Positions 3,878 to 46,494 of a stretch of 54,459 nt of DNA are shown one piece after another; position 1 is the first letter of the stretch, and every line of letters starts with the position of its first letter. Below the pieces are notes generated by a model. It was not told where the DNA came from. It did no database searches and worked only from the letters and a program-made list of their open reading frames with translations. Location of the stretch: assembly GCA_902773085.1 (NCBI GenBank), contig CACYDF010000089.1:1-54459 (forward strand), written 5' to 3'. This DNA comes from an uncultured Erysipelotrichaceae bacterium. Its GTDB lineage: Bacteria; Bacillota_I; Bacilli_A; RFN20; CAG-288. A program made the translations under genes and the position numbers.

Positions 3878-3969
3878 ATCTTTCAACAATAAATATTTTT
3901 TTAGCAACTTTTTTGTTAATTCTCCATTTTGATGTTCGTAATTCTTGTTTTTTCTTTAATTCTTTTAAT

Positions 3970-4201: not shown

Positions 4202-4267
4202 CTTTTTTTTGCTTTACAAACCAATAAAAATTTAATATAATTTTTCTTGCCTAAGAAAGGGGTATGT

Positions 4268-5662: not shown

Positions 5663-5664
5663 CT

Positions 5665-5940
5665 TGTTGATAAGTATATATTTATCAACTTTTATAAACA
5701 AATAAGCAACAAGAAATTGTTGTTTTTTTTCTTCTTTTTTCTCGATATTTTCGGCCTTTTTACACTTATCCACATTATTAACACTTCTTATTATCATCCT
5801 TTATAAATCTTTAAATATATACTAATTAAAAAGAAACACTTCTTTCTTTTTTACTCAGTTTCTTTTCTTTTTAAGTATATTTATATAATAAATATATTTA
5901 AAATCTTAAAAAGAGAATATAATATACTTGTTGTCTGTGG
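5665..5940. promoter_or_regulatory. oriC part 2: DnaA boxes plus AT-rich candidate unwinding region between dnaA and dnaN
   Basis: TGTTGATAA 5665-5673, TTATCAACT 5682-5690, perfect TTATCCACA 5766-5774 directly abutting TTATTAACA 5775-5783. These are followed by an almost pure A/T tract (about 5810-5930) before the dnaN SD. Confidence 0.65.
5707..5730 (+). terminator. Candidate intrinsic terminator after dnaA
   Basis: CAACAA (5707-5712), loop GAAA, TTGTTG (5717-5722), followed by T8 (5723-5730). Weak AT-rich stem. Confidence 0.45.
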
Positions 5941-5949
5941 AGGCATAAT

Positions 5950-7101
5950 ATGAAACTTGTTATTAAAAGAAATGAATTACTTTCTATACTTACATCACTA
6001 ATTCAAATTATTCCAACTAAGAGTTCGGAAGTTCTCTTTTTTGATTTTTTAATTAAATGTGAAAATGAAAAATTAACTATAATTGCTAGTGATGGTCTTA
6101 TTTCTATGAAAATAGAACAAGGATTAAAAAATGAGAAAGGAGAAGAAGTTATTTTATCAATTGAAGAAGGTCAAATATTAACTCCTGCCAAAATCTTATT
6201 TGATATCATCAATAAATGTGAAGGAGATATTATTTCTTTAACATTAGTAGATTCTAATTATTTACATATTTCAGATGAAAAATCAGAATTTAAAGTTGTT
6301 GTTAAACCTGGAGAAGAATATCCAGATATTAATTTAAGTGTTGAAGATAACAATCAAAAAATTCAAGTTAAAATTGAAGATCTTAAAAAGTTATATGAAA
6401 AAACAAATTTTGCAGTAGCTACAAAAGGACCACGAGAATTATTTTACGGAATAAATATAAATTATTCTAATGACAGAGTTTCTTTTCTTTCAACAGATAC
6501 ATATAGAATGGCAAAATACACAGTTCATGGAATAGGAGAAAAAGACATTAATTTTACTTGTCCAATAAAAGCTTTAACCTTAATTAAAGATATTGAAGAA
6601 AAAGGTGAATGCACAATTTATAAAGATAATAAGTCTGCTCTTTTTGTTACAAAGAAAGGAATTCTTGCAACTAGATTATTAATAGGAGATTTCCCAGGAG
6701 TTGAGGGAATCATTCCTGAAGAAACTCCATATGTTGTAAAAATTAAGAGCGAAGAATTTATTAAGATTGCAGAAAGAATGAGTATTCTTTCAGATTTTGA
6801 AAAAAAGAATGCACAAATTAAATTAACTATCGACGAAGAAAGAAAAGTAACATTATCTGCAAATTCAATCGACTATGGTAATTCTAATGAAACAGTAAAA
6901 GATGCCAAAGTTGAAATACCACAAAACGAAAAAATATTTGAAATAGGATTTAATATTGATTTTGTTCTTCCTGCAGTTAAAGCACAAGAAAGCGAATCTG
7001 TTTCTCTTTGCTTTAGTTCACCAACAAAAGTATTCATAGTAAAAAGTGAAGATAAAAATAATATTCAAATCATTACTCCTGTAAGATTAAATAATTATTA
7101 A
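5950..7101 (+). CDS. dnaN: DNA polymerase III beta sliding clamp
   Basis: 383 aa, immediately after dnaA. STDTYRMA motif (cf. ATDGHRLA) and overall three-domain clamp length. GGAGG SD upstream. Confidence 0.93.
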   Translation: MKLVIKRNELLSILTSLIQIIPTKSSEVLFFDFLIKCENEKLTIIASDGLISMKIEQGLKNEKGEEVILSIEEGQILTPAKILFDIINKCEGDIISLTLVDSNYLHISDEKSEFKVVVKPGEEYPDINLSVEDNNQKIQVKIEDLKKLYEKTNFAVATKGPRELFYGININYSNDRVSFLSTDTYRMAKYTVHGIGEKDINFTCPIKALTLIKDIEEKGECTIYKDNKSALFVTKKGILATRLLIGDFPGVEGIIPEETPYVVKIKSEEFIKIAERMSILSDFEKKNAQIKLTIDEERKVTLSANSIDYGNSNETVKDAKVEIPQNEKIFEIGFNIDFVLPAVKAQESESVSLCFSSPTKVFIVKSEDKNNIQIITPVRLNNY

Positions 7102-9946: not shown

Positions 9947-9962
9947 TATTTCACGTGAAACG
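9947..9962. promoter_or_regulatory. parS-like palindrome (candidate ParB/Spo0J binding site)
   Basis: TATTTCACGTGAAACG matches the Firmicutes parS consensus TGTTTCACGTGAAACA at 14 of 16 positions; the inner 12 bp TTTCACGTGAAA are a perfect palindrome. Intergenic, about 4 kb from oriC. Confidence 0.45.
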
Positions 9963-13117: not shown

Positions 13118-14764
13118 ATGGAAAGCGAAACACGACAACTTAAAGAAAAGAAACGTCTTCCTTGGTTCGTTAGATTTTTAAGAAACTTATTAATTGTCAT
13201 TATTATTTTAATAGGTGGAGTTTTTGCTGCTTTTTATGTTAATGACAAGACAGAAGTAGCTACTAACGATCAAACAAATGTACAAACAGTTTACTATTCA
13301 GCCTTATCAAAAAGTGTCGACGATATAGAAGAAACAAAGAAAATGAAATTTTCCCTTGAACAAATCTTTGTTAATTCAGTTATAAAAAAAGCAATTGATA
13401 GTGCAGGAGAAAAAGTAAAAAAATATATAACAGGGGCATATTTTGTTATAGAAGATAACAAATCATTTACAGCTGCAATTAAACTTAAAATAGCTTTTTT
13501 CTCGTCGCGTATTTCAATGAAGTGGGATTTTGAACAATATAATGGAGAAACAGAAGAAACAAGCGGATTCAAATTTAGATTAGCAGAAGTTAAAATTGGA
13601 AGAATTCCTGGATTTACTAATCTTATGCAAGCAATAGCTAGAGCTTTTAAAATAGAAACAATACTTGCGAACTTAGGATCTTCAATGGGACTATCAGCAG
13701 AAATAAATCTAGAAAGAAGAGAGATAACATATTCATATGCAAACTTTAAAAAAGATTTAAAAGGAATTATACAAAACACAAGAGAAGGGGAAGGATCAAC
13801 AAAATTAGAGATTTTTGAAGACTTCTTAGGAAGGATTATCTCTAAAGAAAATGTTGAAATGGCAATAGACAAAGAAAAAATTGAAGTAAATATAAGTTGT
13901 AATTCTTTATCTGCAGGAGATGTTGAAGAAAAAAGAATTCATTATGATTATAAAAAATTAAGAGAAATGATTAATATTCTACTTCCAAAAAATGAATCAT
14001 TAAAACAAAAAGATGTTTTACAATATTTAACTTATTATTATGTTCATGGCTATGACAACTCATCTTTAGCTACACAAGAAATGATGAAACAAATAGATTT
14101 TAGTGATTATACTGAAATATCTGACTATAAAACATATAATGGCATACTTCCATTTACCCAAGAATATAACCTTGAAGAAGAAATATATTATCAACTTTTC
14201 TCAGAAATACAAACAACCATTCAAAAAATTAATAATGGGGAACCAGTATTAGATTTAACAGACGCAAACTTTACAACAACAATGAGAGAAAATAGAACCA
14301 TCCTTGGTTATGCAAGTATTCTTGAAAGAGAAGAAGAAGGTAAAATAATATTCAACTTAATGAGTATTAAAGATTTCTATTGTGAAATAAATCAAAATGA
14401 AGTCGATTTTCACATTATTGTATCTTTAAATGGGCTTGATATGAATTTTGTATTAAAAACAAAAGTATCTACTAATATAGGAAATCATTTCCGTCTTTAT
14501 TTTGCTGTTGAACAACTTTTCTTAGGAGAAAACGAAGTAGACATTGATGCAATGAAAGAAATAATAAATGTTTTAGTTCAAAGTACTCAATATAAAAGTT
14601 TATTTGTTGTTACTCAAAACGGGAAACCTTTTATCTATTTAGATATAGATAACATTTTAAGTCGTCAAAATCCTCAAATACTAGATGCAATAAATGCTAA
14701 TAACAAAAGAGTAACTATTGAAGAAGGTTCTCAAAAAGACCATCTAGTATTATCATTTAAATAA
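13118..14764 (+). CDS. Hypothetical membrane-anchored protein (single N-terminal TM helix, large extracytoplasmic part)
   Basis: 548-aa ORF. N-terminal basic stretch then LLIVIIILIGGVFAAFYV helix. No recognisable catalytic motif. Confidence 0.8.
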   Translation: MESETRQLKEKKRLPWFVRFLRNLLIVIIILIGGVFAAFYVNDKTEVATNDQTNVQTVYYSALSKSVDDIEETKKMKFSLEQIFVNSVIKKAIDSAGEKVKKYITGAYFVIEDNKSFTAAIKLKIAFFSSRISMKWDFEQYNGETEETSGFKFRLAEVKIGRIPGFTNLMQAIARAFKIETILANLGSSMGLSAEINLERREITYSYANFKKDLKGIIQNTREGEGSTKLEIFEDFLGRIISKENVEMAIDKEKIEVNISCNSLSAGDVEEKRIHYDYKKLREMINILLPKNESLKQKDVLQYLTYYYVHGYDNSSLATQEMMKQIDFSDYTEISDYKTYNGILPFTQEYNLEEEIYYQLFSEIQTTIQKINNGEPVLDLTDANFTTTMRENRTILGYASILEREEEGKIIFNLMSIKDFYCEINQNEVDFHIIVSLNGLDMNFVLKTKVSTNIGNHFRLYFAVEQLFLGENEVDIDAMKEIINVLVQSTQYKSLFVVTQNGKPFIYLDIDNILSRQNPQILDAINANNKRVTIEEGSQKDHLVLSFK

Positions 14765-14793
14765 AAAAGGTTATATATTTTAAATATATAACC
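14762..14793 (-). terminator. Intrinsic terminator of rpmE
   Basis: GGTTATATATTT (14769-14780) / AAATATATAACC (14782-14793) inverted repeat. On the minus strand it is followed by a T-run (complement of AAAAAA 14763-14768). Confidence 0.6.
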
Positions 14794-14819
14794 CCATTAA
14801 ATATAAAGTAAAAATAAGA

Positions 14820-15047
14820 CTATTTTTTCTTTTCTTGTAAAGCTTTAGCAGCTTCTGCTTTTTTATTGAATTTTGCAACTCTACCAGTATCTGCAGTATA
14901 AGAAAGTTTTCCTGTATAGAAAGAGTGACAATGTGAACAAGTATCAACTTTAATTTCTTTGACAGTTGATCCAGTTTCAAAAGTTGTTCCACAAGTAAGA
15001 CAAGTTACTTTAGCACGATTATAATTAGGATGTATATCTTTTTTCAT
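14820..15047 (-). CDS. rpmE: 50S ribosomal protein L31 (Zn-ribbon, four-Cys type)
   Basis: MKKDIHPNY... start, CLTCG...CSHCH cysteines, and HSFYTGK motif. Confidence 0.94.
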   Translation of the reverse strand: MKKDIHPNYNRAKVTCLTCGTTFETGSTVKEIKVDTCSHCHSFYTGKLSYTADTGRVAKFNKKAEAAKALQEKKK

Positions 15048-15134
15048 CTTTGTTTCTCCTTTTTAGGCAACAACAATTTTAACATAGCAAAATAATAAGT
15101 GCAAGAAAAAGTGAAAAATTGCCTTACATAGTTC

Positions 15135-17105
15135 TTAGTTATTATTTCTTTCAATTATGATAGTTGAATCACTACTAGGTAAGATAGAATCTATTTTATA
15201 TCTTGTTCCAGTTTCTTCAATATAAAAAGAAAGATTATCAAGTGAAGTAATATTTAATGCATTACATAAACGAGAATAATTATCTTGAATAGTTGAACCA
15301 GGAATAATATAACAAGAAGAAGTATATTCGCCAGTAAAAGAAAGTAATATTCCTTTAGTAACTTTGTTATAGATATTAATTATAGGAGGTTCATCAAAAG
15401 AAGAAGAACCACTAATAGTTTCATTATTATTCTTTAACGAGAAAGAAGAGTCATAATAAAGGCCATCATATAAATAAGTATTATTGTTATATAATATATC
15501 ATCATATAAAGAAGGATACAAACTAGAAATAGACATATTTACTTCATTAGATTTGTAATGACCAAGAGATACATTACTAATAATATTTTTTTCATCAATT
15601 AAGGTTATTAAATTAATAATAGAAGTGTATTCTATTTTTAAATAAATAGATAGACTTCTACCAGGCATTAAAGTAGATGAAAAAAGAATTTCATTATTAT
15701 TTGATAAATAATAATAAGACTCTCCTTCAATTATTTTAGATAAGTAATCACTAGAAGAAGTTACTTTATCTTTAAACGAATTTAAATAAGAAGAAATATC
15801 ACTTCCTGAAGGAAGAAGTATTTCTTGATTTGAATAATAAGATTGATCATAAGAGTAATTATTAGGGAAAAAATAATTTATAAATAAAGAAGGGTAAGAA
15901 GTATATTGAGCAATAAGAGTTACATCATCATTGGGTAAAGCAAAAGAAAAAAGATTAATTTTTTCATTATTTACTAAGTAATGATTAAAGAATGTTGTTT
16001 CTTTTGTAGGATATTCATCTTTTATATATGATGGTAGAGAATCATATCCGTAACTTATAAAAGACAAAGAAGACTCTCCATTTAATGTTCCACCATTATA
16101 GTCAATTGTTACATTAATCTTTTTACCCCATAATAAATATAAAGAAATAGATTGTTCACCAATATCACTAGAGACAGGGAATTCTTCTTCGTAATCAGAA
16201 TCAAGGAAACAACCGATTAATTTATATTCTCTATCTCTAATATATATTTCTTTGTTTTCTCCGTATTCAATTTGACCAAGATTATTTTCAATAGTTTCAA
16301 TAATATTTGTGTAGATATTTTTGTTTTGAGCAAAAAAGGAAACTTGTAAATCATCTAATCCAAGATTAACAGTGACAGTAGAATTATCAACCCAGATAGC
16401 TTTTAATGTAATTGATTTTTTCTCTCCGCTTATTTGAGGAAAAGAAAAAGATTGGGCATTCTTATAAAAGTCTAAGAAATTATATTCGCCTTTTTCACTA
16501 TATTCATCAACCTTGTAAAAAACCTTTTTTGTATTTGGATCTGTTTGCTCAATAAGTTTATATTCAATTGCCCAATATGAAAAAGTTTTATTTAAACATG
16601 TTGCAGTAGGAAGATAGTTAGAAGAAGCAAATTCTTTTTTTTCATATCCATATAAAGTTAGATTCTCTGCATTAAAATCTCTATTTGGAGAAACAGGAGG
16701 AACTATCTTTGGTTCATATTCTTCACCGACATTTAAATCAAAAACAAAAGTTTCTTCTGGTTCAAAATAAGTATATAAAGTAGTAACACCATAAGGGTAT
16801 AGATATACTTCTTGACCAAAGAAAGGGGAAGAAGAATCAGTAATTAATCTTTTTTGTAAAAACTGATAAGAACCATTAATATATTCTCTCCATCCAACAA
16901 AATAATATCCTTCTTTTTTTGCTTGAGGAAGTCCACTAACAATGATAGTGTTACTTTCTCCTTTTATATAATTTGTAGAAAAAGAAGGATCAGCAAAAGC
17001 AGCACCTTCTTCTAAAACAAAAGTAATTGTTCCTGTTGGATTTAAGTTAGTACAAGATGATATAAACAATGAAAAAATAACAGGAAGGAATCTTTTCATC
17101 TTCAT
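15135..17105 (-). CDS. Lipoprotein with Listeria/Bacteroides-type (Flg_new-like) repeats
   Basis: Signal peptide with lipobox (FSLFISS-C). Repeated G(Y/F)xFxGW-type motifs (EGYYFVGWREY, TFSYWAIEY, YKLIGCFLD). Confidence 0.75.
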   Translation of the reverse strand: MKMKRFLPVIFSLFISSCTNLNPTGTITFVLEEGAAFADPSFSTNYIKGESNTIIVSGLPQAKKEGYYFVGWREYINGSYQFLQKRLITDSSSPFFGQEVYLYPYGVTTLYTYFEPEETFVFDLNVGEEYEPKIVPPVSPNRDFNAENLTLYGYEKKEFASSNYLPTATCLNKTFSYWAIEYKLIEQTDPNTKKVFYKVDEYSEKGEYNFLDFYKNAQSFSFPQISGEKKSITLKAIWVDNSTVTVNLGLDDLQVSFFAQNKNIYTNIIETIENNLGQIEYGENKEIYIRDREYKLIGCFLDSDYEEEFPVSSDIGEQSISLYLLWGKKINVTIDYNGGTLNGESSLSFISYGYDSLPSYIKDEYPTKETTFFNHYLVNNEKINLFSFALPNDDVTLIAQYTSYPSLFINYFFPNNYSYDQSYYSNQEILLPSGSDISSYLNSFKDKVTSSSDYLSKIIEGESYYYLSNNNEILFSSTLMPGRSLSIYLKIEYTSIINLITLIDEKNIISNVSLGHYKSNEVNMSISSLYPSLYDDILYNNNTYLYDGLYYDSSFSLKNNNETISGSSSFDEPPIINIYNKVTKGILLSFTGEYTSSCYIIPGSTIQDNYSRLCNALNITSLDNLSFYIEETGTRYKIDSILPSSDSTIIIERNNN

Positions 17106-19501: not shown

Positions 19502-20611
19502 ATGCTTTATACAAACAAGTTATTTAGAAAAAGAGACATCTATAATCACTTAAAATATGAAGCTCTGTTTTTTAAGGCAATTAAAGAAAACTGCTTATAC
19601 TTATATAAGCACTGTGCAGAGTATAAGAAGATTTTAGATGATAAATATTTTAATATTAATAGAGATTTAAAAAGCGTTGATGATATTAGTAAAATCCCTT
19701 TTATTCCTACTTTATATTTGAAAAGACATAAACTTACAACAATTAAACATAAATCTTTAATTACAGTAACTAGTAGTGGTACTTCAAGCAGAAATAAATC
19801 AGAAATAGATTTCAATTTAGGTTTCCTTCTTAGAGCTTGGAATATGACAAGAAGAGTAGCTAAGTATCATAAACTTTGGTCAATAAAGCCAACAAGATAT
19901 TTAATCCTTGGTTACAAACCAAATAAAAAGAATCCAGCAGCAGTAACAAAAACCGCTTTTGCTGCAACCTTCTTTGCACCAGGAATAAGTCGTACTTATG
20001 CTATTGATTATGTTAATGGTGAATATAAAGTTGATTTAGATAAATTAAAGAACAAGTTAGTTAAATTTGCAAAAGGTAGATTACCAGTAAGAACTATGGG
20101 CTTTCCAGCTTACACATATTTTTTGTTAAAGCAAATGAAGGACGAAGGAATCAAAGTTAAACTACCTAAGGGAAGCAAGATTATGCTTGGAGGTGGATGG
20201 AAACAGTTCTATGCAGAGAAAGTAGACAAAGAAGAATTTTATAAACTAGCTGAAGAAGTTTTAGGGGTTAATGATAAAAATATTGTTGAGTTTTTTGGAG
20301 CAGTCGAACATCCTATTTTATATACAGATTGTAGAGAACACCATTTTCATGTTCCTATCTATTCAAAAATAATTATTAGAGATGTATCTACTTTAGAACC
20401 ACTTGAAGAAGGCAAAATAGGTTTAATTAATTTAATTACTCCTATAGCATCATCTTCTCCATTAGTATCTATTATGACTGATGATTTAGGAGTTCTGCAT
20501 TCATCTTGTAAGTGTGGAGAAAAAGGTCAGTATCTAGAAATAATTGGGCGAGTAGGAATTAAAGATATTGTTACATGTGCTCAAGGGGCAGAGGAGATGT
20601 TAAAGCAATGA
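19502..20611 (+). CDS. LuxE-like acyl-protein synthetase / adenylate-forming enzyme
   Basis: N-terminal LFFKAIKENCLYLYKHCAEYKKIL...ISKIPFIPTLYLKRHKL and the TSSGTSS adenylation motif match my memory of the LuxE family (PF04443). Confidence 0.75.
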   Translation: MLYTNKLFRKRDIYNHLKYEALFFKAIKENCLYLYKHCAEYKKILDDKYFNINRDLKSVDDISKIPFIPTLYLKRHKLTTIKHKSLITVTSSGTSSRNKSEIDFNLGFLLRAWNMTRRVAKYHKLWSIKPTRYLILGYKPNKKNPAAVTKTAFAATFFAPGISRTYAIDYVNGEYKVDLDKLKNKLVKFAKGRLPVRTMGFPAYTYFLLKQMKDEGIKVKLPKGSKIMLGGGWKQFYAEKVDKEEFYKLAEEVLGVNDKNIVEFFGAVEHPILYTDCREHHFHVPIYSKIIIRDVSTLEPLEEGKIGLINLITPIASSSPLVSIMTDDLGVLHSSCKCGEKGQYLEIIGRVGIKDIVTCAQGAEEMLKQ

Positions 20612-21864
20612 TATTATTTCAAGGTCAAGTATATAAAGATAGTAAACAAGATGAACTCATATCTAAATTATATGAGACAGCTTTGCTTACTTTAAAAAAT
20701 AAACCTCTTGATCCTTTAACTGTTATTAATGCATGTGACAAGTTATATAAAAAGGTAATGAACCACGACTTTGATGATATTATTCTACCTTTACTTGAAA
20801 CATTTGATATTTCTTATCCTTACTTTTTAGATAGTGCAAAAAACTTTTCTAAAGAAGGACTACTGACTAAATTAAAAATAGAATTAGGTGAAGATTATGC
20901 ATCTTTATCAAAATTAAAAAGCGGAACTAAAAGGCAGTATTATCCACTTGGAATTCTTTTCCATGTTGCTGCAGGAAATGTTGATGCTCTTCCTGCATAT
21001 AGTGTAATAGAAGGATTACTTGCAGGTAATATTAATATTTTAAAGTTACCTAGTGGTGATTCAGGTATATCAATTAAGTTGTTAAGTGAATTAATTAAGG
21101 AAGAACCAATATTAAAAGATTACATTTATGTATTTGATGTTCCTTCTACTGAAATAGAAACCATAAAAAGACTTGCAAATATATCAAATGGAATTGTTGT
21201 ATGGGGAGGAGATTTTGCTTTAAAATCTGCAAGAGAATTTGCTCCAATTAATTCAAAGATTATTTGCTGGGGACATAAACTTTCTTTTGCATACGCTTCT
21301 TTAGATGCTAGTGAAAAAGAACTTGAAGAGCTTGCTTCTCATATATGTCAAACTAATCAAGTACTTTGTTCTTCTGTCCAAGGGATATTTGTAGATACTG
21401 AAAAAGAAGATGAGGCTAAGAAGTTTGCAGATAGATTCTTTAATATACTTGTTAAAGTTAGTAAATCTGGTGCTAAATACGATTTAGGAATGGCTGGTAA
21501 AAATACTATTAATTTATATGTAGATAAAATGGAAGATCCTTCTTTATATCTTTTAAATAGTGATGGAGTATCTGTTGTATACAAAAAAGATAGCAAACTG
21601 GAATTATCGTATATGTTTAGAAATGTGTGGATTAAACGATTACCAAGAGATAAAATTCTTACTTTACATAAAAACAAATCTTATTTACAAAGTGTTGCTT
21701 TATTGTGCACGGATAAAGATAGAGAAATTTTGTCAACTTTACTAGCTCAAGCAGGAGTTACAAGAGTTTCTGGCCCTAACTCATCTAGACTTTTCCTAGG
21801 AGAGTCACATGATGGTCTTTATCCACTTAGAGAATATTCAAGAGTAGTTGAATTTGATAAATAA
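20608..21864 (+). CDS. LuxC-like acyl-CoA (acyl-protein) reductase
   Basis: GILFHVAAGNVDALPAYSVIEGLLAGNINILKLPS is typical of LuxC/PF05893. Start set at ATG 20608 (ATGA overlap with the luxE-like stop, GGGGCAGAGGAG SD upstream), not the ORF-track start 20575. Confidence 0.75.
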   Translation: MILFQGQVYKDSKQDELISKLYETALLTLKNKPLDPLTVINACDKLYKKVMNHDFDDIILPLLETFDISYPYFLDSAKNFSKEGLLTKLKIELGEDYASLSKLKSGTKRQYYPLGILFHVAAGNVDALPAYSVIEGLLAGNINILKLPSGDSGISIKLLSELIKEEPILKDYIYVFDVPSTEIETIKRLANISNGIVVWGGDFALKSAREFAPINSKIICWGHKLSFAYASLDASEKELEELASHICQTNQVLCSSVQGIFVDTEKEDEAKKFADRFFNILVKVSKSGAKYDLGMAGKNTINLYVDKMEDPSLYLLNSDGVSVVYKKDSKLELSYMFRNVWIKRLPRDKILTLHKNKSYLQSVALLCTDKDREILSTLLAQAGVTRVSGPNSSRLFLGESHDGLYPLREYSRVVEFDK

Positions 21865-22003
21865 AGAAACAGGAATATGTGGTTAAAAAAATCTGGAATA
21901 TAATGAAGAAGAAAAATAAATCAATGCAAAAAACTGTTTATACTATTTGTTTTTAATATTAGTATGGAAAAATCAAATTTATTTGTGAAAAAAAAGTAAA
22001 AAT

Positions 22004-22026
22004 CCCCTGGAACACGAGAAGAAAAA
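22004..22026. repeat. Palindromic element copy a (3' arm conserved, 5' arm diverged)
   Basis: CCCCTGGAACAC-GAGAAGAAAAA. Confidence 0.5.
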
Positions 22027-22205
22027 CTAATTTAAACAATAATAGTACAAAGAGAAAATATAAATAAAGTATATTTAATTTAATTAATAAACACTCTCAG
22101 CACCTAAAGTAAAACAAAAGAGACACGAAGAAGTAAAACAATTTACGCAAAACGACAATTTTATAAATATAATTGATCGAATATAAAAAATAGTAATAAT
22201 ACCAA

Positions 22206-22235
22206 TTTCTTCTCGTATAAGAGAATAAAAACACG
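22206..22235. repeat. Palindromic element copy b
   Basis: TTTCTTCTC-GTATAA-GAGAATAAAAACACG. TTCTC/GAGAA stem. Confidence 0.7.
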
Positions 22236-22326
22236 TTTTTAAATAGTTAAGTTACTTATAAATACACTATATAATTATATAAATAACAAATTAAAAATCG
22301 TCTTATTAAAATGGCAAAAAAACAAA

Positions 22327-22354
22327 TTTTCTCCTCTTATATGAGAAGAAAACG
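22327..22354. repeat. Palindromic element copy c
   Basis: TTTTCTCCTC-TTATAT-GAGAAGAAAACG. One mismatch in the stem. Confidence 0.8.
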
Positions 22355-22640
22355 CTTGTTTTGTAATAACAATAGCATGCTTATGATTGATGAGAGCGGG
22401 AAGATATTAAAGATCTACAGTCAAATTAAAAACACAAACACATACATGTAATTAAATTTTGCAAACATATCATTGTAATTTCTTTAACAAAGAATAGGTC
22501 ATAAAATTTAAAGTTAAAGTAATAATCATATTATATCAGGAAAAATCATTTTACTAATCTGAAAAAAACATATTAACTTTTTTTCATTGGATAGAGTACT
22601 AAGAAAAAAATTTAACAAAAAACAACCTTGTTAAAATATA

Positions 22641-22680
22641 AAGTTGCTAATTTGATTTTACTCTCAAACAAGAAGGAGAA
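22641..22680 (+). repeat. Direct repeat k, copy 1
   Basis: AAGTTGCTAATTTGATTTTACTCTCAAACAAGAAGGAG shares an identical 15-mer TCTCAAACAAGAAGG (22662-22676) and flanks with copy 2. Confidence 0.7.
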
Positions 22681-22842
22681 ATCAATTTTTGATAATAGTT
22701 GTTTAACAATTTATTCACTTAATAAAACACGGAATTTCAAAAGATATGACAAGTGTTAATTTTTTTAATAATATGGATAATTGTAATATGATAACACCTT
22801 CTGATATATGTGATATTTTAATATAAACAATTAACTATAAAT

Positions 22843-22872
22843 CGTTTTTTCTTCTCTTATACGGGAACAAAA
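22843..22872. repeat. Palindromic element copy d (3' arm degenerate)
   Basis: CGTTTTTTCTTCTC-TTATAC-GGGAACAAAA. Confidence 0.65.
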
Positions 22873-23132
22873 TTACTTTTTCATGCTGTTATATTAAGGA
22901 TGCAGAAGATTCTTAAATTTATACTTACTGCATTTAATAAATAAAGGAACAACAAAAAAGAAATATTATTACTATTGATTAATAAGTTTATTTTTTACTA
23001 TATCCATTTTCTTTTTTTGCTTTCAACTTACCTTTTATATATTTGATCTGTTTTATAGTGAACTAAAATTGATATATTACATCTTATAAAGAACAGGACA
23101 AAATTAAACAAAAGCAACTTTGTGATATTTTT

Positions 23133-23170
23133 AAATTGTTAATAAAGATTTGTTCTCAAACAAGAAGGTG
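23133..23170 (+). repeat. Direct repeat k, copy 2
   Basis: AAATTGTTAATAAAGATTTGTTCTCAAACAAGAAGGTG. 15-mer at 23154-23168. Confidence 0.7.
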
Positions 23171-23222
23171 TTTTCTTCTTTTTTTAAAAAGCACTATATC
23201 CTTCAGAGTTTTCATTTGCTTG

Positions 23223-23245
23223 TTTTTTCTCTTGAATGAGAATTA
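23223..23245. repeat. Palindromic element copy i (short form)
   Basis: TTTTTTCTC-TTGAAT-GAGAATTATT. Confidence 0.5.
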
Positions 23246-23348
23246 TTAAAATTTGATAATATTCATCATAATATAATATCTTGGAATTATACTTGAATCA
23301 AACCTACTTATTGTTAATTTCTTTTGTATCAAATAATTCCATAAAAAC

Positions 23349-23377
23349 CGCGTTTCTTCTCTTATATGAGAAGAAAA
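23349..23377. repeat. Palindromic element copy e (best preserved)
   Basis: CGCG-TTTCTTCTC (23353-23361) TTATAT GAGAAGAAA (23368-23376). Perfect 9-bp stem. Confidence 0.85.
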
Positions 23378-23462
23378 TGGTCATTTATAATTAATTTTTT
23401 TACATGAATTATTATTAGCAATATTATCAATATAACTAAAATGAATTTTAATCTATACTCTA

Positions 23463-23494
23463 TTTTTTCTCCCAATTATTTGTAGCTTTGTTTT
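23463..23494 (+). repeat. Direct repeat j, copy 1
   Basis: TTTTTTCTCCCAATTATTTGTAGCTTTGTTTT. Core CAATTATTTGTA at 23473-23484. Confidence 0.7.
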
Positions 23495-23605
23495 ATTAAC
23501 GATTATTTAATAGATCTAAATTTTAGTACAGAATCATAGTCAAAGTATAATAAAAGAAAGAATTATATTGAATGTTTAAAACAATAATGTAAAGCTTTAT
23601 TAAAA

Positions 23606-23630
23606 TTTTTCTTCTCGTACGCGAGAGGAT
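23606..23630. repeat. Palindromic element copy f (compensated stem, UACG loop)
   Basis: TTTTT-CTTCTCG-TACG-CGAGAGG. 7-bp stem including one G-T pair. The loop reads UACG in RNA. Confidence 0.75.
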
Positions 23631-23646
23631 TTTTCTTCTCTTATAC
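23631..23646. repeat. Palindromic element half copy f2 (5' arm plus loop only), abutting copy f
   Basis: TTTTCTTCTC-TTATAC, followed by unrelated T-rich sequence. Confidence 0.5.
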
Positions 23647-23715
23647 TTTTATTTATTATTGTTTCCTTTTTTTGTTTTACAATTTATTTTCTTATTTTTA
23701 TTTCTACTTTTTATC

Positions 23716-23744
23716 TTTTTCTTCTCTTATGAGAAGGGGAAAAG
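23716..23744. repeat. Palindromic element copy g
   Basis: TTTTT-CTTCTC-TTAT-GAGAAG-GGGAAAAG. Confidence 0.8.
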
Positions 23745-23764
23745 CAAAAAGTAGTTTAGTTTTA

Positions 23765-23796
23765 TTTTTCTTCAATTATTTGTAAATTGGCGTTTT
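23765..23796 (+). repeat. Direct repeat j, copy 2 (runs into palindromic copy h)
   Basis: TTTTTCTTCAATTATTTGTAAATTGGCGTTTT. Core CAATTATTTGTA at 23773-23784, exactly 300 bp from copy 1. Confidence 0.7.
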
Positions 23797-23820
23797 GCTT
23801 CTGGTACTTGAGAAGAAAAG
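23791..23820. repeat. Palindromic element copy h
   Basis: CGTTTTG-CTTCT-GGTACTTG-AGAAG-AAAAG. Confidence 0.65.
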
Positions 23821-23908
23821 TGGTTTTCGTTGCTTATAAATTTAATCTCTAAATAAATATATAGTTCATCTCTTTTTTAAATATAAAATAAATTTATTTA
23901 TTTTAGAT

Positions 23909-23914
23909 TATAAT
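23909..23914 (+). promoter_or_regulatory. Candidate -10 box for leuS
   Basis: TATAAT lies 19 nt upstream of the leuS ATG and just before the GGGAG SD. No convincing -35. Confidence 0.3.
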
Positions 23915-23932
23915 ATATTTCGGGAGAAAAAC

Positions 23933-26338
23933 ATGTTTGACCACAAAAAAGTAGAAATTAAATGGGAAAAAAGATGGGAGAAAGAAAAAGTATATAAAAC
24001 AGATACTTCTGACTTTTCAAAACCTAAATATTATATCTTGGATATGTTTCCATACCCAAGTGCTGTCGGACTTCATGTAGGACATGTTGAAGGTTATACT
24101 GCAACTGATGCCTTAAGTAGAATGAAAAGGATGCAAGGATATAATGTGCTTCATCCTATTGGATACGACGCTTTTGGTCTTCCTGCAGAGCAGTTTGCGA
24201 TTAAAAATAACAAAAATCCAAAGATTTATACCGATCAAAATATCGAAAATTTTCAAAAGCAGCTAAAAAGACTTGGATTTTCGTATGATTGGGATAGAGT
24301 AGTAAAAACAAGCGATCCAAAGTATTATAAGTGGACTCAAACTATTTTTAATATGCTTTATGACCAAGGACTAGCATATGAAGATTATAGAGCAGTAAAT
24401 TATTGCCCAAAATTAGGTACAGTTCTTGCAAATGAGGAAGTAATTGACGGAAAAAGCGAAAGAGGAGGCTATCCAGTAGAAAAAAGGCTCATGAAACAAT
24501 GGGTTTTAAAGATTACGGCCTATGCAGAAGAACTTCTAGAAGGACTTAGTACTATAGAATGGCCACAATCTACTATTGCAATGCAAAAAAACTGGATTGG
24601 TAAGTCAAAAGGCGTAGTTATTACCTTTAAAGTCAAAGATAATGATACAAAGTTTGATGTATATACAACAAGAGTAGATACCTTATATGGATGTACATAT
24701 GTTGTACTAGCTCCTGAACATGAACTAGTTAAAAAACTAGTATCAAAAGAACAGAAAAAAGAAGTAGAACAATATATCAAAGAAACAAACAAAAAATCAG
24801 ACATAGAAAGAAATGATACATCTAAAGAAAAAACAGGAGTATTTTTAGGATGTTATGCTATCAATCCAATTAATGGAGAAGAGGTCCCAATTTACATTGG
24901 AGACTATGTATTATCTAGTTATGGATGTGGAGCAGTAATGGCTGTTCCAGCACACGATCAAAGAGACTATGAATTTGCAAAAAAACATAATCTAAAAATT
25001 AAACAAGTTTTGGAAGGAGATATCTCTAAGCATGCATTTGAAGATGATGGTGTTCACATTAATTCCGAAGAAGCTAATGGATTAAATATAGCAGATGCAA
25101 AATCGAAGATTACTGAGAAATTAATTAGTTTAAAAGCAGGAAGATATCAAACAAATTATAAGTTAAGAGATTGGCTATTTTCTCGACAAAGATATTGGGG
25201 AGAACCAATACCTATTATTCATTTAGAAGATGGGACAATTGCAGTAGAGAGAAAGCTTCCTTTAATATTACCAGAACTTGAAGATTATAAGCCTTCAAAA
25301 GATGGCAAAGCACCTTTATCAAAAGCAAGTAAATGGTTAGAAGTAAAAGTAGGATCAAAAAAAGGAACTAGAGAGATTAATACAATGCCACAATGGGCAG
25401 GGTCAAGTTGGTATTATGCTAGATACATTGATCCTAAAAATGATAAAGAAATTGGAGATAAGAAGTTGCTTGATCATTGGCTACCAGTTGATGTTTACAT
25501 AGGTGGTGCAGAACATGCTGTACTTCACTTGTTGTACGCAAGATTCTGGCACAAATTTTTACATAACCAAGGTATATTTAAATCAAGTGAACCATTTAAA
25601 AAACTTTATCATCAAGGACTAATATTAGGAACTGATGGGCAGAAGATGTCAAAGTCTGCAGGTAATGCAGTTTCACCAGATGAAATTATAGAAGAATTTG
25701 GAGCAGATGCTTTACGACTTTATGAGATGTTTAAAGGGCCAGTTGATCAGTCTCTTCCTTGGTCTATACAAGGGCCAAAAGCTGCAAAGAAGTTTATTGA
25801 TAGATTCTATAGATTATTTATAGATAGCCAATTTAAACAAATAACAACCGACAAGAACAACGACAAGTTGGATTATGTATACAACTATACAATTAAGAAA
25901 TGCACTCAAGATTATGAGATGCTACATTTCAATACAGGTGTATCTCAAATTATGATTTTTGTTAATGCATTATATGAAGCAAATTCTATTCCAAAAAAGA
26001 TGCTCGTTGATTTAGCAAAATTAATTGCACCAATCTGCCCTCATCTTGGTCAGGAATGTTATTCTTTAATATGTGATAACAATGAATTGATTGACTATAC
26101 TTCTTGGCCAAAATACAAGGAAGAAAAAATTAGTGCTAAACCAATCACATATGCAGTTCAAGTTAACGGAAAACTTCGTGGTACTATTGAATATAAGTTT
26201 GATGCTAATGATAAAGAACTTGAAGAGTTAAAAGAGAAAGCAGTTAAATTAGAAAGTGTAAAAACTTATTTAGAGAATAAAGAAATAATAAAAATAATTG
26301 TTGTAAAAAATAAGATAATTTCTATTGTAGTTAAGTAG
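23933..26338 (+). CDS. leuS: Leucine--tRNA ligase
   Basis: HIGH-type motif (GLHVGHVEGY), KMSKS (QKMSKSAGN), and CP1 editing-domain length. 801 aa. Confidence 0.96.
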   Translation: MFDHKKVEIKWEKRWEKEKVYKTDTSDFSKPKYYILDMFPYPSAVGLHVGHVEGYTATDALSRMKRMQGYNVLHPIGYDAFGLPAEQFAIKNNKNPKIYTDQNIENFQKQLKRLGFSYDWDRVVKTSDPKYYKWTQTIFNMLYDQGLAYEDYRAVNYCPKLGTVLANEEVIDGKSERGGYPVEKRLMKQWVLKITAYAEELLEGLSTIEWPQSTIAMQKNWIGKSKGVVITFKVKDNDTKFDVYTTRVDTLYGCTYVVLAPEHELVKKLVSKEQKKEVEQYIKETNKKSDIERNDTSKEKTGVFLGCYAINPINGEEVPIYIGDYVLSSYGCGAVMAVPAHDQRDYEFAKKHNLKIKQVLEGDISKHAFEDDGVHINSEEANGLNIADAKSKITEKLISLKAGRYQTNYKLRDWLFSRQRYWGEPIPIIHLEDGTIAVERKLPLILPELEDYKPSKDGKAPLSKASKWLEVKVGSKKGTREINTMPQWAGSSWYYARYIDPKNDKEIGDKKLLDHWLPVDVYIGGAEHAVLHLLYARFWHKFLHNQGIFKSSEPFKKLYHQGLILGTDGQKMSKSAGNAVSPDEIIEEFGADALRLYEMFKGPVDQSLPWSIQGPKAAKKFIDRFYRLFIDSQFKQITTDKNNDKLDYVYNYTIKKCTQDYEMLHFNTGVSQIMIFVNALYEANSIPKKMLVDLAKLIAPICPHLGQECYSLICDNNELIDYTSWPKYKEEKISAKPITYAVQVNGKLRGTIEYKFDANDKELEELKEKAVKLESVKTYLENKEIIKIIVVKNKIISIVVK

Positions 26339-33127: not shown

Positions 33128-34123
33128 ATGTCTATGGAAAAAGAAAACACAGAAATCTCTCTAATTTATCAAAGCAAAAGTGAGTGGATAAGATCATTAT
33201 TGTTTGGAATTGTCTTAGGCCTTTTTGTTATTATTCCAGGTGTTTCAGGAGCAACGCTTTTAATAAGTTTAGGAGTTTATTATAAAGTAGTTTATGCAGT
33301 TTCAAATATTCTAAAAAAAGGAAAGAAAAAAATGTGTTTTACTTTTCTTCTTCCACTTGTGTTAGGTATATTAATAGGTTTACTAAGTGGTTTATTTTTA
33401 ATTAGATTTTTATTAGATATAGTCCCTTTCTCAACAATCTTTTTATTTGCAGGACTAATGATAGGATCATCCCCTGTTCTATTTAAAGAAATTAAAGGGA
33501 AAGAAAAAAGACCATCTAATATTCTTTTAATGCTTATAGGAACTATTTTTATTTTATTTATTTGTCTCTTGTCTATTTATTTATCAAGAGAAGAATTATT
33601 TTATGGTCAAGAAAAAAGTGTAAGAACTTTAGTTGATGTAGAAACATATTTTTACTTTGTAAGTATCTTAATTGGTTTTGTAATAGGAATTACGCAGGTT
33701 ATTCCAGGATTGTCAGCATCTGCATTTTTAATGATGATAGGATATTATTCAATTATTTTAAATTCTATTCATTTTTCAATCATTATAGAATCACCAATGA
33801 TTATTCTAATATTTGTATTATTAATTGTTGGATTCCTCTTAGGTGTATTAATAACCAACAAAATTATGCTAGTTTCAATGAAAAAGAATAAAGAAAAGAT
33901 GGATTTTTTTATTTCAGGTCTTGCAATTGGTTCAATAATAGCTATTTTTGTTTCTAAAGAACTATTTGAAAAGGTTTATTTGGTTTATTTTTCATCAAAA
34001 ATGTCAACTATACAACTAGTTGACTTTATAATTGGCTTTTTAACTTTTGGTATAGGAATAACTATATCTTTATTAATATCCAGGAAAGCAACAACAAAAG
34101 AAGAAATAAAAGAAATTAACTAA
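33128..34123 (+). CDS. DUF368-family membrane protein (family implicated in undecaprenyl-phosphate recycling)
   Basis: Internal duplication, each half carrying the PG(V/L)S(G/A) motif (VIIPGVSGATLL; VIPGLSASAFLM). Polytopic. Confidence 0.72.
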   Translation: MSMEKENTEISLIYQSKSEWIRSLLFGIVLGLFVIIPGVSGATLLISLGVYYKVVYAVSNILKKGKKKMCFTFLLPLVLGILIGLLSGLFLIRFLLDIVPFSTIFLFAGLMIGSSPVLFKEIKGKEKRPSNILLMLIGTIFILFICLLSIYLSREELFYGQEKSVRTLVDVETYFYFVSILIGFVIGITQVIPGLSASAFLMMIGYYSIILNSIHFSIIIESPMIILIFVLLIVGFLLGVLITNKIMLVSMKKNKEKMDFFISGLAIGSIIAIFVSKELFEKVYLVYFSSKMSTIQLVDFIIGFLTFGIGITISLLISRKATTKEEIKEIN

Positions 34124-36782
34124 TATTAATTTGATAAGAACACTTGGAGCCGTTATTAAATAATGCTTTGTTTCCAAAGCCAGCTGGAACAAGTAAAGAA
34201 TTAAATATAGTTGTTTCTTCAGCATCTAAGGCGGTATTACTATTACGCTTTTTAATAATACTCCATTGTTTGCTTGTGTAATATTGGGTTGGGCCATTGT
34301 ATTCAAGCCAATAATATAAATTGTTTAATTCTTCAGGAGACAAATCTTTAACTAGTGAAGAAAGGAAACCAAAGCAAGATAAGGAATTTCTTTTTTCATT
34401 TTCTTTCATTCTGGAAGGATATTCCATTACAGTTGTAGGGGTTGTATAACTTCCTATTTCAAAGCTAGATCCACTTTTGAAAAGAACAGAATTGCAGTCA
34501 GATGTAGTGGACTTTAGGTAATAAGAAGAATCAACATATTCTTCATTGTCGACAGTAAGGATTCTAATTTCATCACAGTAATTAGCAAATTTTTCGCCAC
34601 CTACTATATTTGCAATTGCACCATTTCGATTTTTAGAACCATGTTCAGCAAACTCGCCATACTCAGTATTAGTAATAGGACAAGCAAGAAGTTCATTTTC
34701 ACCTAGAGAAATGAGGTGAACAGGATCTGAAGGAACTACATATTCGTTATTAGAATATACTAAACCTCTTTTATCAACGTGATAAATTCTTACACCAGTA
34801 TTTGTAAAATTTTGAGTAGAATAAACATCATATCCTTTGGTATTAAGATTATCATTGATACTACTTGAATAAGGGTAATTAGATTCAGGTGTGAAAAAGT
34901 CAATAACAAGATATTCATCATAAGGAATGAATTTTGTTTCACCACGACTATTCTTATAATATGAACTTGAATAATCAAGAGAATCATAAGGTATAACAAC
35001 AACTTGGTTTTTGTATAAAGAGGGTTTTAACGTAATTGTAGATTTTCCGTATACTAAATATGGTTTTGTCCAACCTAGAAGAAGTTTACTATATGGATTA
35101 TGATCGAGGAAGTTTTTATCCATGAAATCAAGACCGCCAAGAGGGGCGTAATTTGCGACGTGTGAATTACCTTTAGTTTGAAAAACATAAGGAGCATCAC
35201 TGCTTGCTGTTACTGAATAGTAGTCGCTAAGTCCAAGTAAGTGACCTGTTTCGTGAATAATAGAATGTGCATCTCCAGTAGAGTTTTGACCAGTTGTTCC
35301 TGCACTAGTAGTTTTTTGTGCTTTATAGAAATCATCATTTAAAGTGCCGATAGGAGTCCATGCAAACATATTAACAACTGGTTCAGATACATTAGGAGTT
35401 GTATTTAAAAGGTTATTAGTATGTGGCCAGCCAGCATGTGAATTATTGGCTAAAGGACTGATAGGATTAAATGATACAAACCATAGCGCATCAATATAAC
35501 CATCTCCATTAGAATCAAAGTCTCTTAAATCAAAACCAGACTTCTTAACATAGCTGACAGCATCTTTAAGCATAGGGGCTAAATCATTATCAGTAAGAAC
35601 TGGTAAGCCATCACTACCAAAATTAATTTTATACGATTTTGATCCATCAATTTGAGGATTAAATGGAGGCGCAACTTGTCCGTAAAAATTTAACAAGCCA
35701 TAACTGCTCTTATAGTAGAAAGATCTAAGAGACTCATAATATAAATCATCAGAGTTTCCAAAGAAGCACTTCTCTATTATTGATAAATTTTCATCAGTGA
35801 ATAACTCGTGGCTTTTGCTGTTATTAAAGTAAAAAGGAATTACTAAAACAGGAACATCACCAATAGAGGGACACACTATTTTTTCCTCGTCGTTTTTTGT
35901 TCTAAAATAATCAAAACCAAAAGAGTTATCTACTTGACTTGGACTGATATAATTTTCTGTGCCTGTTTGTCTAGATTGATCAATCTCATTATTTGTAATA
36001 GTTAAAGTAATTGTTTCGTCAGTATCATATTTAACTATTGTTGATTCATCAAAATCTTCTAAAGATAAAGAAGAGGAAACAGCCGAATCTGTTACGTTTA
36101 TTTTATATGTAGCTGGTGCAGTTTGCTTTCCAGAAAACAAAAAAGAAGGCGCAGTAACTGAAATTGTATAAACCCCTTTGGTCCCTTCTGGAAACATATA
36201 GCCTTTTGTTAAAGGGATGTTTCTATTGTTGTTACGATAAGAAAAAGAACAAGCACTTAGAGGAACATCATAAATCTTTTTTAATTGTTGACCATTAAGT
36301 GTTTCATAAGTTAATAATCTTTTTGCAACTAAACCTTCTCCACTAAATGTACTAGAAGGAGAATTTGCATAATAATATTGATGAATAGGATAAGAAGAGA
36401 TATAGAAGCTTTCACTCATAGCTTCATATATCGTGATTTCTATACTATAGTTTTTATATCCTTCAGAAGAAAAAACCCATCTATATTTTCCTGGTGTTAT
36501 TGAAAGGATGTCACCTTGTCGGATATCCTGTTTAGCATTTGCCCATCTAATTGTGTAGTTAACTTCCTTTTTGTCGCCTGTTTCATAATCGACACCTTTA
36601 ACTATACAATCACTTAAATCGACAGTTTCATTAACAAAATATTCTCTTTTTGTTAAATCTACTTCAAGATAATTATCAGTTGTAATAGTTGCAGCTTCTG
36701 ACAAGCCAAAAATTGTACAACTAGGAATTAGAAGTGAAAGAGAAAAAGATAAAAAAGCAAAAAGACGTTTTTGTTTTCCCAT
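34116..36782 (-). CDS. Large lipoprotein with M6 (immune inhibitor A)-like zinc metalloprotease motif
   Basis: Signal peptide plus lipobox (LLIPS-C). HETGHLLGLSDYY fits HExxHxxGxxD. 8-nt 3' overlap with the convergent DUF368 gene. Confidence 0.72.
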   Translation of the reverse strand: MGKQKRLFAFLSFSLSLLIPSCTIFGLSEAATITTDNYLEVDLTKREYFVNETVDLSDCIVKGVDYETGDKKEVNYTIRWANAKQDIRQGDILSITPGKYRWVFSSEGYKNYSIEITIYEAMSESFYISSYPIHQYYYANSPSSTFSGEGLVAKRLLTYETLNGQQLKKIYDVPLSACSFSYRNNNRNIPLTKGYMFPEGTKGVYTISVTAPSFLFSGKQTAPATYKINVTDSAVSSSLSLEDFDESTIVKYDTDETITLTITNNEIDQSRQTGTENYISPSQVDNSFGFDYFRTKNDEEKIVCPSIGDVPVLVIPFYFNNSKSHELFTDENLSIIEKCFFGNSDDLYYESLRSFYYKSSYGLLNFYGQVAPPFNPQIDGSKSYKINFGSDGLPVLTDNDLAPMLKDAVSYVKKSGFDLRDFDSNGDGYIDALWFVSFNPISPLANNSHAGWPHTNNLLNTTPNVSEPVVNMFAWTPIGTLNDDFYKAQKTTSAGTTGQNSTGDAHSIIHETGHLLGLSDYYSVTASSDAPYVFQTKGNSHVANYAPLGGLDFMDKNFLDHNPYSKLLLGWTKPYLVYGKSTITLKPSLYKNQVVVIPYDSLDYSSSYYKNSRGETKFIPYDEYLVIDFFTPESNYPYSSSINDNLNTKGYDVYSTQNFTNTGVRIYHVDKRGLVYSNNEYVVPSDPVHLISLGENELLACPITNTEYGEFAEHGSKNRNGAIANIVGGEKFANYCDEIRILTVDNEEYVDSSYYLKSTTSDCNSVLFKSGSSFEIGSYTTPTTVMEYPSRMKENEKRNSLSCFGFLSSLVKDLSPEELNNLYYWLEYNGPTQYYTSKQWSIIKKRNSNTALDAEETTIFNSLLVPAGFGNKALFNNGSKCSYQINIS

Positions 36783-46126: not shown

Positions 46127-46141
46127 TAATAAAAAAAGACA

Positions 46142-46460: not shown

Positions 46461-46494
46461 AAATATTTATAACATTTTATAAAGTATAAATAAT

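Follow-up and report, generated by a model that had tools for sequence, protein, structure and literature searches.

The 54,459-nucleotide contig CACYDF010000089.1 of an uncultured Erysipelotrichaceae bacterium (hereafter the window, that is, the whole stretch of DNA analysed) holds a gap of about 2 kb between a luxC-like gene and leuS, in which a family of short palindromes recurs. Comparison between strains of one species showed that these putative hairpins persist although the intervening DNA has become almost random, and the substitutions in their arms were shown to preserve predicted base pairing on the + strand only. We tentatively interpret the locus, with somewhat less than even confidence, as a hairpin cluster similar to repetitive extragenic palindromic (REP) sequences and bacterial interspersed mosaic elements (BIMEs), which selection would maintain within a non-coding island that is itself dispensable and hypervariable and lies where synteny breaks. 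An earlier note, made from the letters of the window, had drawn attention to the gap; the main fact beyond its view is the combination of extreme variability of the island among strains with retention of its hairpins. Because this uncultured rumen and gut lineage of Bacilli (RF39/Enterosoma-like) has very compact intergenic DNA, a persistent gene-free island of 2 kb needs an explanation.

A palindrome family between luxC and leuS

The gap contains about 12 copies of the palindrome, counting intact, half and decayed copies. The consensus, TTTCTTCTC-TTRTAT-GAGAAGAAA, is 22–28 nt long with a stem of 9–11 bp and a loop of about 6 nt, and paired cells in the hairpin alignment amount to 88.9%. The pattern TTCTTCTC-N6-GAGAAGAA, with up to three mismatches, matches nine times in the window against 1.0 expected, a number reached in none of 100 shuffles of the window, and seven of the nine matches lie in the gap. 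A covariance model of the hairpin was run over 563 kb from the present genome and its relatives, and every match at E < 0.1 fell in alleles of this gap. The earlier note had described three repeat families that it saw nowhere else in the window; the repeats are real and specific to the locus, with no significant copy outside it, but all three belong to this one palindrome family.

The copies lie at irregular start-to-start spacings (122, 520, 505, 255, 24, 86 and 77). They are listed below by coordinates in the window, with their counterparts in a second strain (L092, copies s1 to s5 and sZ) and a third contig set (L096, L097).

21998–22026, − strand: copy Z, a variant of the G/E type, TTTTTCTTCTC-GTGTTCCA-GGGGATTTTT on the − strand, with the motif CTGGAACACGAGAAGAAAAA on the + strand
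22205–22230, + strand: hairpin A, TTTCTTCTC-GTATAA-GAGAATAAA; model score 37.7 bits; identical in L096
22327–22352, no strand assigned: hairpin B, TTTTCTCCTC-TTATAT-GAGAAGAAAA; the sole copy folding better on the − strand; identical in L096
22656–22683, − strand: decayed copy Y1, TTTCTCCTTC-TTGTTT-GAGAGTAAA on the − strand; model E = 0.34
22847–22872, + strand: hairpin C, TTTTCTTCTC-TTATAC-GGGAACAAAA; aligns with s1
23150–23172, − strand: decayed copy Y2, a second CTCAAACAAGAAGG repeat, read from the sequence
23224–23245, + strand: weak copy X, TTTTTCTC-TTGAAT-GAGAATTA; model score 32.9 bits
23352–23377, + strand: hairpin D, a perfect copy, TTTCTTCTC-TTATAT-GAGAAGAAA; minimum free energy (MFE) −11.1 kcal/mol; 21 of 22 positions identical to s3
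23606–23646, + strand: hairpin E, TCTTCTC-GTACGC-GAGAGGA followed by T5, with half-copy E2 directly 3′ at 23630; aligns with s4
23717–23742, + strand: hairpin F, TTTTCTTCTC-TTAT-GAGAAGGGGAAA; aligns with s5
23794–23819, + strand: hairpin G, of the G type, GCTTCTGGTACTTGAGAAGAAAA; aligns with sZ

Copy Z forms the inverted pair I5 with copy E and has a weak model match at the orthologous site of L096 and L097, and Y1 is the CTCAAACAAGAAGG repeat of the earlier note. Hairpin G and sZ both carry the motif TGGWAC-N2-GAGAA. Hairpin E is terminator-like, and its purine arm is able to pair with the pyrimidine arm of either E or E2. T-runs lie directly 3′ of E in the window and of s2 in the second strain; the ordinary terminators of this genome are GC-rich, unlike the hairpins.

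The 45-nt flanks of 15 copies are as dissimilar as shuffled flanks. Since they are no more alike than shuffles, the repeat unit is the palindrome alone, a longer unit of the kind found in miniature inverted-repeat transposable elements was ruled out, and the copies would not stem from segmental duplication. New copies may arise through insertion or de novo creation of the unit of about 26 nt alone. Two roles in translation were also considered and rejected: a leader peptide with attenuation at Leu codons (TTT-CTT-CTC-TTA, FLLL), because the reading frame is inconsistent between copies, and hairpins sequestering the Shine-Dalgarno sequence or start of small genes, because no start codon lies at a consistent distance.

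Retention of the putative hairpins between strains

Two independent assemblies (L081, L082) contain the same gap at 99.98% identity, so the gap is no artefact of assembly. Over 12.5 kb rightwards from position 23867, the second strain (L092–L095), whose LeuS differs at 10–11 residues, matches the window at 97.9% identity, and BLAST aligns nothing upstream of that position. The spacer of this strain extends 1.43 kb from leuS to a divergent lipoprotein-like gene, and contains five canonical hairpins and one copy of the G type. An unanchored global alignment of the two spacers paired C with s1, D with s3, E with s4, F with s5 and G with sZ, at distances from the leuS ATG (window/L092) of −1084/−1103, −579/−668, −324/−375, −214/−216 and −137/−138, respectively. 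Of the 22-nt segments outside the promoter, those with the highest scores are mostly these paired hairpins, and the overall spacer identity of 57% is near that of an optimal alignment of unrelated AT-rich DNA.

The third contig set, whose LuxC differs at 6 residues, has the left 590 bp of the island in common with the window. Over this length L096 shows 50 mismatches (~9%) and 42 indel positions, compared to 35 differences in the 2363 nt of luxEC (1.5%; 2.9% at third codon positions). By contrast, no change at all affects hairpins Z, A and B in L096 (about 85–95 nt in total), and Z is also unchanged in L097. A fourth lineage (L218) has a right end of the window type at ~95% identity, with G intact. 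Judged from these alignments, the island is evolving several-fold to more than ten-fold faster than nearby synonymous sites, or holds very old alleles.

Among more distant relatives, the closest GTDB representative has a LeuS that is just 70% identical, and no synteny. In a sister species (LeuS 88–89% identical) the genes downstream of leuS are syntenic. The earlier note had proposed to look at what lies between luxC and leuS in relatives; upstream of leuS the sister species has a spacer of 112 bp without hairpins and then eight other genes, and luxEC lies in another context.

The lipoprotein-like gene of the second strain (L092 1–243, − strand) encodes a lipoprotein-like signal peptide, MKRSRLLLALLSLSLNAC, and has no homologue in the window. 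A search with its fragment for sequence beyond the ends of the second-strain contigs gave no match. L092, L093 and L095 all end inside this gene, which suggests that it is multi-copy or strain-variable.

Predicted strand-specific pairing

The two arms of the palindrome are unequally conserved, with 4 of 117 cells deviating in the pyrimidine arm and 20 of 117 in the purine arm (Fisher p = 8.6e-4), and this asymmetry lies in the same genomic orientation across copies. The purine arm shows ten A>G changes, which give a U.G wobble, and no G>A, and the pyrimidine arm shows one T>C. After an A>G change a pair, U.G (or T.G), survives only when it is the + strand that folds. In agreement with this, 12 of 13 copies have a more stable predicted RNA fold for the + strand (mean −8.0 versus −6.6 kcal/mol; Wilcoxon p = 0.02; mean MFE of background 30-mers −1.1 kcal/mol). 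A mutational strand bias was ruled out as the source of the arm asymmetry, since spacer substitutions are strand-symmetric (A/G 10, C/T 14) and the GC skew of the gap is ~0.

Arm asymmetry and fold preference together point to a hairpin formed by the + strand as a single strand, either RNA or single-stranded DNA, and not to a symmetric dimer-binding DNA site. The unequal arms therefore disfavour a symmetric protein-binding array of the parS or DnaA type; a protein-binding array, as a nucleoid or segregation element, was one of the explanations offered in the earlier note. The gap has two one-mismatch DnaA boxes (TTATCCACA) and no array of these or of parS (TGTTNCACGTGAAACA), and a second origin or centromere was ruled out, as DnaA boxes cluster at dnaA and the sole parS-like site lies at 9947–9962.

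That palindrome, TATTTCACGTGAAACG, matches TGTTNCACGTGAAACA at 14 of 16 positions, is the only one in the window, and lies 12 nt upstream of the start of an M20 peptidase gene, ~4 kb from dnaN. Perfect and one-mismatch DnaA boxes are clustered at 3970–4201 and 5665–5774 on both sides of dnaA (31 boxes in the window against 15.9 expected), and these flanking clusters confirm a bipartite oriC.

Borders, composition and coding content of the gap

20608–21864, + strand: gene for a luxC-like acyl-CoA reductase, bordering the island on the left (Pfam LuxC, E = 3e-50; 418 aa in same-strain contigs)
21865–23866, no strand: AT-rich, strain-variable island free of open reading frames (ORFs); coding signal absent; homology with the 97.9%-identical strain ends at 23867
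23867–23932, + strand: leuS promoter (TATAAT-like −10) and ribosome-binding site, outside the variable island; conserved in the second strain and the sister species
23933–26338, + strand: leuS, the right border of the island (Pfam; downstream synteny kept in the sister species)

As the last 66 nt of the gap (23867–23932) are the conserved leuS promoter and ribosome-binding site, the unexplained stretch is 21865–23866. The earlier note had called the gap free of ORFs, and the longest ORF overlapping 21865–23932 in six frames is indeed 46 aa. When a single stop codon was recoded, the longest frame had 141 codons and required TAA as sense, and TGA or TAG gave at most 95; an alternative genetic code or a recoded phage gene was rejected, as no frame opens with TGA or TAG as sense. 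The GC content of the gap is 0.20–0.24 (~0.21), versus 0.30–0.35 (~0.31) in the flanking genes. The note's statement that other intergenic gaps stay below 400 bp also holds: the largest gene-free spacers elsewhere in the 54 kb are 3877–4247 (370 bp) and 5662–5950 (288 bp), the two halves of oriC around dnaA, and apparent gaps at 14764–15135 and 46126–46591 are occupied by rpmE and a csp gene.

No transfer RNA or transfer-messenger RNA was found in the gap. Rfam gave no match at gathering thresholds in the whole window, and at E ≤ 10 just sub-threshold noise from eukaryotic microRNA and small nucleolar RNA families in the gap and L092, consistent with the earlier note, which could match the gap to no RNA family. 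The gap has no blastn match in phage and plasmid collections. Recombinase, transposase (including Y1_Tnp, RAYT and IS200-like) and Cas genes are absent from the 54 kb, the functions of which are housekeeping only.

The switch from A-rich to T-rich DNA reported in the earlier note was confirmed by an AT skew of +0.205 over 21865–22800 and −0.139 over 22801–23866 (chi-square p = 1.5e-11), with the switch near 22,800 and the peak of T-richness at 23600–23800 (skew −0.44). The note had read it as a sign of two convergent transcription units or genes. This is unsupported, because the AT skew of L092 is ~0 along the whole spacer and the orientation of the hairpins does not change at the switch, with the 12 that fold better on the + strand lying in both halves. 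The polarity switch is a trait of the spacers of the window allele, notably of the T-runs at 23640–23720. A further idea, that the whole gap is one large degenerate palindrome, came from nested inverted pairs centred near the switch and was ruled out: when the left half is compared with the reverse-complemented right half, no more than one hairpin and ~30 nt align, and the score is 51 versus 48 for the direct comparison.

Comparison with REP elements and related structures

REP sequences and BIMEs of Enterobacteria and Pseudomonas resemble the family described here in being imperfect palindromes of 20–40 nt that lie outside genes only, in clusters with variable linkers and at strain-variable loci, and both are thought to work as single-stranded hairpins in mRNA or single-stranded DNA. 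The unit of 22–28 nt with its 9–11 bp stem falls within the REP stem-loop definition, and all copies lie in the ORF-free gap with unrelated flanks, as expected of extragenic, clustered elements. REP sequences are dispersed in many copies through the intergenic regions of a genome; all copies known here, from the 563 kb covered, lie at one locus. They are mostly in one orientation instead of alternating, and their stems are AT-rich homopyrimidine/homopurine instead of GC-rich.

We infer that the hairpins may act in RNA, which would come from luxEC read-through or from promoters within the island. There they could serve as REP-like barriers to 3′ exonucleases, as partial or leaky terminators, or as protein-binding stem-loops. 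Alternatively, they may fold in + strand DNA; the + strand is the sense strand of luxC and leuS, and right of oriC it is also the lagging-strand template.

A number of observations weigh against a REP-like cluster kept by selection. There is no GTAG-like flanking motif or other conserved flanking tetranucleotide, and no conserved column outside the stem-loop (alignment A4). No gene for a REP-associated tyrosine transposase (RAYT) or an IS200-like transposase was found in the 54 kb or in six-frame translations of the gap. Neither the ~2.2 kb of intergenic DNA elsewhere in the window nor ~50 kb of the sister species contains a copy. The conserved promoter of leuS itself lies downstream of the array, and the upstream neighbour in the second strain is a divergent gene. 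Hairpin B and copy Z are oppositely oriented, and the similar spacing of hairpins in the two alleles could be inherited or due to chance (n = 5 intervals). A disrupting A>T change in F of L218 shows that retention is not strict for all copies. Finally, the pairing tests are post hoc, use few copies (13) and are not mutually independent, and none of nine base pairs shows compensatory double changes, so that the case for structure is carried by the wobble asymmetry.

Among close strains of Escherichia coli, structure-forming repeats mark loci that show more rearrangement than control sites do (PMC4666352). The TMECO intrastrand triplex motif described there consists of a pyrimidine stem, a loop, a purine stem, a loop and a second purine stem (Holder et al. 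2015, PMC4666352). It is similar to our hairpins in the order of pyrimidine stem, loop and purine stem, in stems of ~9 nt, and in lying at loci rearranged among close strains; it differs in being GC-rich and in having the third stem. As no copy here is followed by a second purine stem, a triplex is not predicted. The E. coli repeats serve as a useful analogy, with no claim of membership.

Alternative explanations

An unlikely alternative is an array of recombination sites, in which each palindrome would be the core site of a site-specific recombinase, with two inverted arms of ~10 bp and a 6-bp centre as in dif, lox or sfx, and exchange between sites would swap or shuffle segments, as in shufflons, pdif modules and integron cassette arrays, to give strain-specific spacers. 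The 10-6-10 geometry is visible in the sequence. As at the core sites of tyrosine recombinases (dif/pdif, sfx, and attC including clusters of attC sites lacking integron integrases, CALIN), there are several sites with a few hundred bp of variable DNA between them and a strain-variable content. Spacers are unrelated between strains of ~98% identity with an abrupt homology border at 23867, and in relatives synteny is broken to the left and to the right of the locus. Unequal arm conservation is also seen in heterodimeric Xer sites and counts in favour of this explanation. However, the 54 kb contain no recombinase gene, and between the two alleles no spacer is seen to be inverted, permuted or moved. 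Base pairing predicts A>G changes without G>A, protein contacts do not, and the roughly collinear hairpin positions of the two alleles fit descent better than cassette swapping. Integron attC sites are at least 55 nt long, have R″-L″/L′-R′ boxes (RYYYAAC/GTTRRRY) and extrahelical bases and usually come with intI, whereas the present palindromes have perfect or near-perfect stems within 24–28 nt, no GTT/AAC boxes or bulges, and no integrase in the window.

We also consider it rather improbable that the island is a graveyard of genes or of a mobile element lost at a rearrangement point, with hairpins that would be residual gene-start or untranslated-region modules of a paralogous family (TTAT-ATG-AGA-AGA-AAA, MRRK...) or residual terminators. 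The eight genes at the island position in the sister species, the other context of luxEC there, and the lipoprotein-like gene 1.43 kb upstream of leuS in the second strain are consistent with such an origin. An ATG stands at the junction of loop and arm in 7 of 14 scored copies, with GTG or TTG in two more; it reads ATG-AGA-AGA-AAA, and the frame stays open for 20.5 codons versus 14.0 in the background (P ~0.04). However, the peptides 3′ of the hairpins are unrelated between copies and unconserved between strains, and the small ORF of F is lost through a stop in L218. Decayed genes were among the candidates of the earlier note, and the refuting test that it had named, a search for remnants of frame-shifted genes collinear with an intact gene in relatives, was negative: tblastn with 19 genes flanking luxC or leuS in the sister species or relatives gave nothing above 20 bits (best <20 bits), and six-frame translations of the gap contain no Pfam remnant at E ≤ 10. 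Decay also leaves unexplained why the hairpins stay unchanged amid divergence of 9% to saturation, and the ordinary terminators here are GC-rich. From the note's list of non-coding RNA genes, mobile elements and decayed genes, what stands is a region that is non-coding and outside any known RNA family; a recognisable gene graveyard is unsupported.

It is quite unlikely that the island encodes one or two long non-coding + strand transcripts acting as a sponge or scaffold, with a repeated protein-binding stem-loop as the sole selected motif. CsrB and RsmZ sponge RNAs would offer the parallel, at a much smaller scale: in both cases a short repeated stem-loop motif alone is conserved and the rest evolves freely. 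The + strand fold preference agrees with this model, as does the conservation of the pyrimidine arm and of the loop consensus TTRTAT, which extends to sequence beyond what pairing demands. However, the array is 1–2 kb long and known from DNA alone, versus 0.1–0.4 kb for the known sponge RNAs, and its spacing of 77–520 nt is different and far looser. No promoter or terminator frames it, promoter-like sites in the island being at chance level (17 versus 18.9 expected), and it is absent from the sister species.

CRISPR arrays share with the locus a conserved palindromic repeat and strain-specific intervening sequence; they differ from it in that spacing here is irregular (77–520 bp), the repeats are degenerate, there is no leader and no cas gene in the 54 kb, and no spacer matches the phage and plasmid collections. 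A repeat-spacer system of a new kind, which we regard as very unlikely, would combine a selected array of + strand hairpins in RNA or single-stranded DNA with segments of 80–500 nt, replaced or diversified from strain to strain. Processing or recognition would take place at the hairpins, the segments would be a functional payload of, for example, guides, decoys or regulatory RNAs, and the alleles would be far older than the core genome of the species and under diversifying selection.

There is hardly any case for a guide array or type I/III toxin-antitoxin-like modules with hairpins as processing sites and variable spacers or small ORFs as payload, since, apart from conserved repeats with strain-specific spacers and the small hydrophobic ORFs that occur in the gap, spacing is irregular, no cas, tas or toxN-like genes lie in the window, the gap is without a match in phage or plasmid collections, two 22–23-nt spacer probes have no exact match in IMG/VR, and the tandem modules of type I systems (Ldr, Ibs/Sib), 300–500 bp repeats that each specify an antisense RNA along with a small hydrophobic peptide conserved between modules, contrast with the unrelated flanks, the unconserved peptides and the loss of the ORF of F in L218.

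For a T-box leader of leuS, whose covariance model comprises a Stem I specifier, the T-box sequence and a terminator/antiterminator, neither allele gave a match at E ≤ 10. Where copy G has TGGTAC, the second allele has TGGAAC, and by the discriminator rule TGGAAC would break T-box pairing with the A73 discriminator.

Other observations

Scans of IMG/VR gave one chance match to the hairpin and none to two spacer segments. A metagenome scan for the perfect hairpin gave more than 120 matches, and those examined look like chance or unrelated elements; no metagenome locus with several relaxed matches resembles this array, and one AT-rich candidate (L136) was rejected because it lies inside an ORF. 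Many contigs of a few metagenomes (prefix LFIK01, brine samples; ~50% GC) carry an unrelated long stem, (G)GAG-TTTCTTCTC-N6-GAGAAGAAA-CTC(C), which is widely repeated with conserved flanks such as GACCGTCGTCCCTTCCTGCC and has no Rfam match at gathering thresholds (L099, L101, L104, L107, L110, L124, L132, L133, L141, L179, L182 and others). Another unrelated metagenome contig (L178, 33% GC) has two similar hairpins 266 nt apart, at 5179–5215 and 5445–5485, in which the purine arm runs directly into an ATG (GAGAAGAAA-ATG-AAA...). This arrangement looks like that of tandem small genes whose ribosome-binding site is sequestered by a hairpin.

In a relative, the region upstream of a Fic-domain gene adjoining luxC (L085 1800–1905) contains TGTGAAACAAA twice and the inverted TGTTTCACA once, which, from its layout, looks like an operator arrangement.

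Many genes of the window are without a recognisable Shine-Dalgarno sequence (for example 13118; 15135–17105, − strand; 34116–36782, − strand), and others have a strong GGAGG. An ABC-ATPase ORF is listed from the TTG at 41167, which gives it a 31-nt overlap with the start of the divergent polC (41197), and its true start is probably further downstream than 41167. Homopolymers T13 and A15 lie around a short AT-rich segment at 54388–54436, where the contig is about to end on the right; they may represent the spacer of a phase-variable promoter prone to slippage, or simply the cause of the assembly break.

Discussion

At the leuS promoter the divergence between strains jumps abruptly from ~2% to near-saturated, and beyond this border one short hairpin family alone survives. 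As the sole survivors of the jump, the hairpins would be either selected for or continually regenerated. The island also has practical consequences: it breaks short-read assemblies, with several contigs ending inside it, and it could serve as a strain marker. To our knowledge, no REP-like elements have been described in this lineage. If the hairpins are indeed REP-like, elements of the REP type would be extended to a new lineage and in an unusual form, being AT-rich, restricted to a single locus and with most copies oriented alike. Should the spacers prove functional or exchanged, the island would represent a new type of hypervariable locus.

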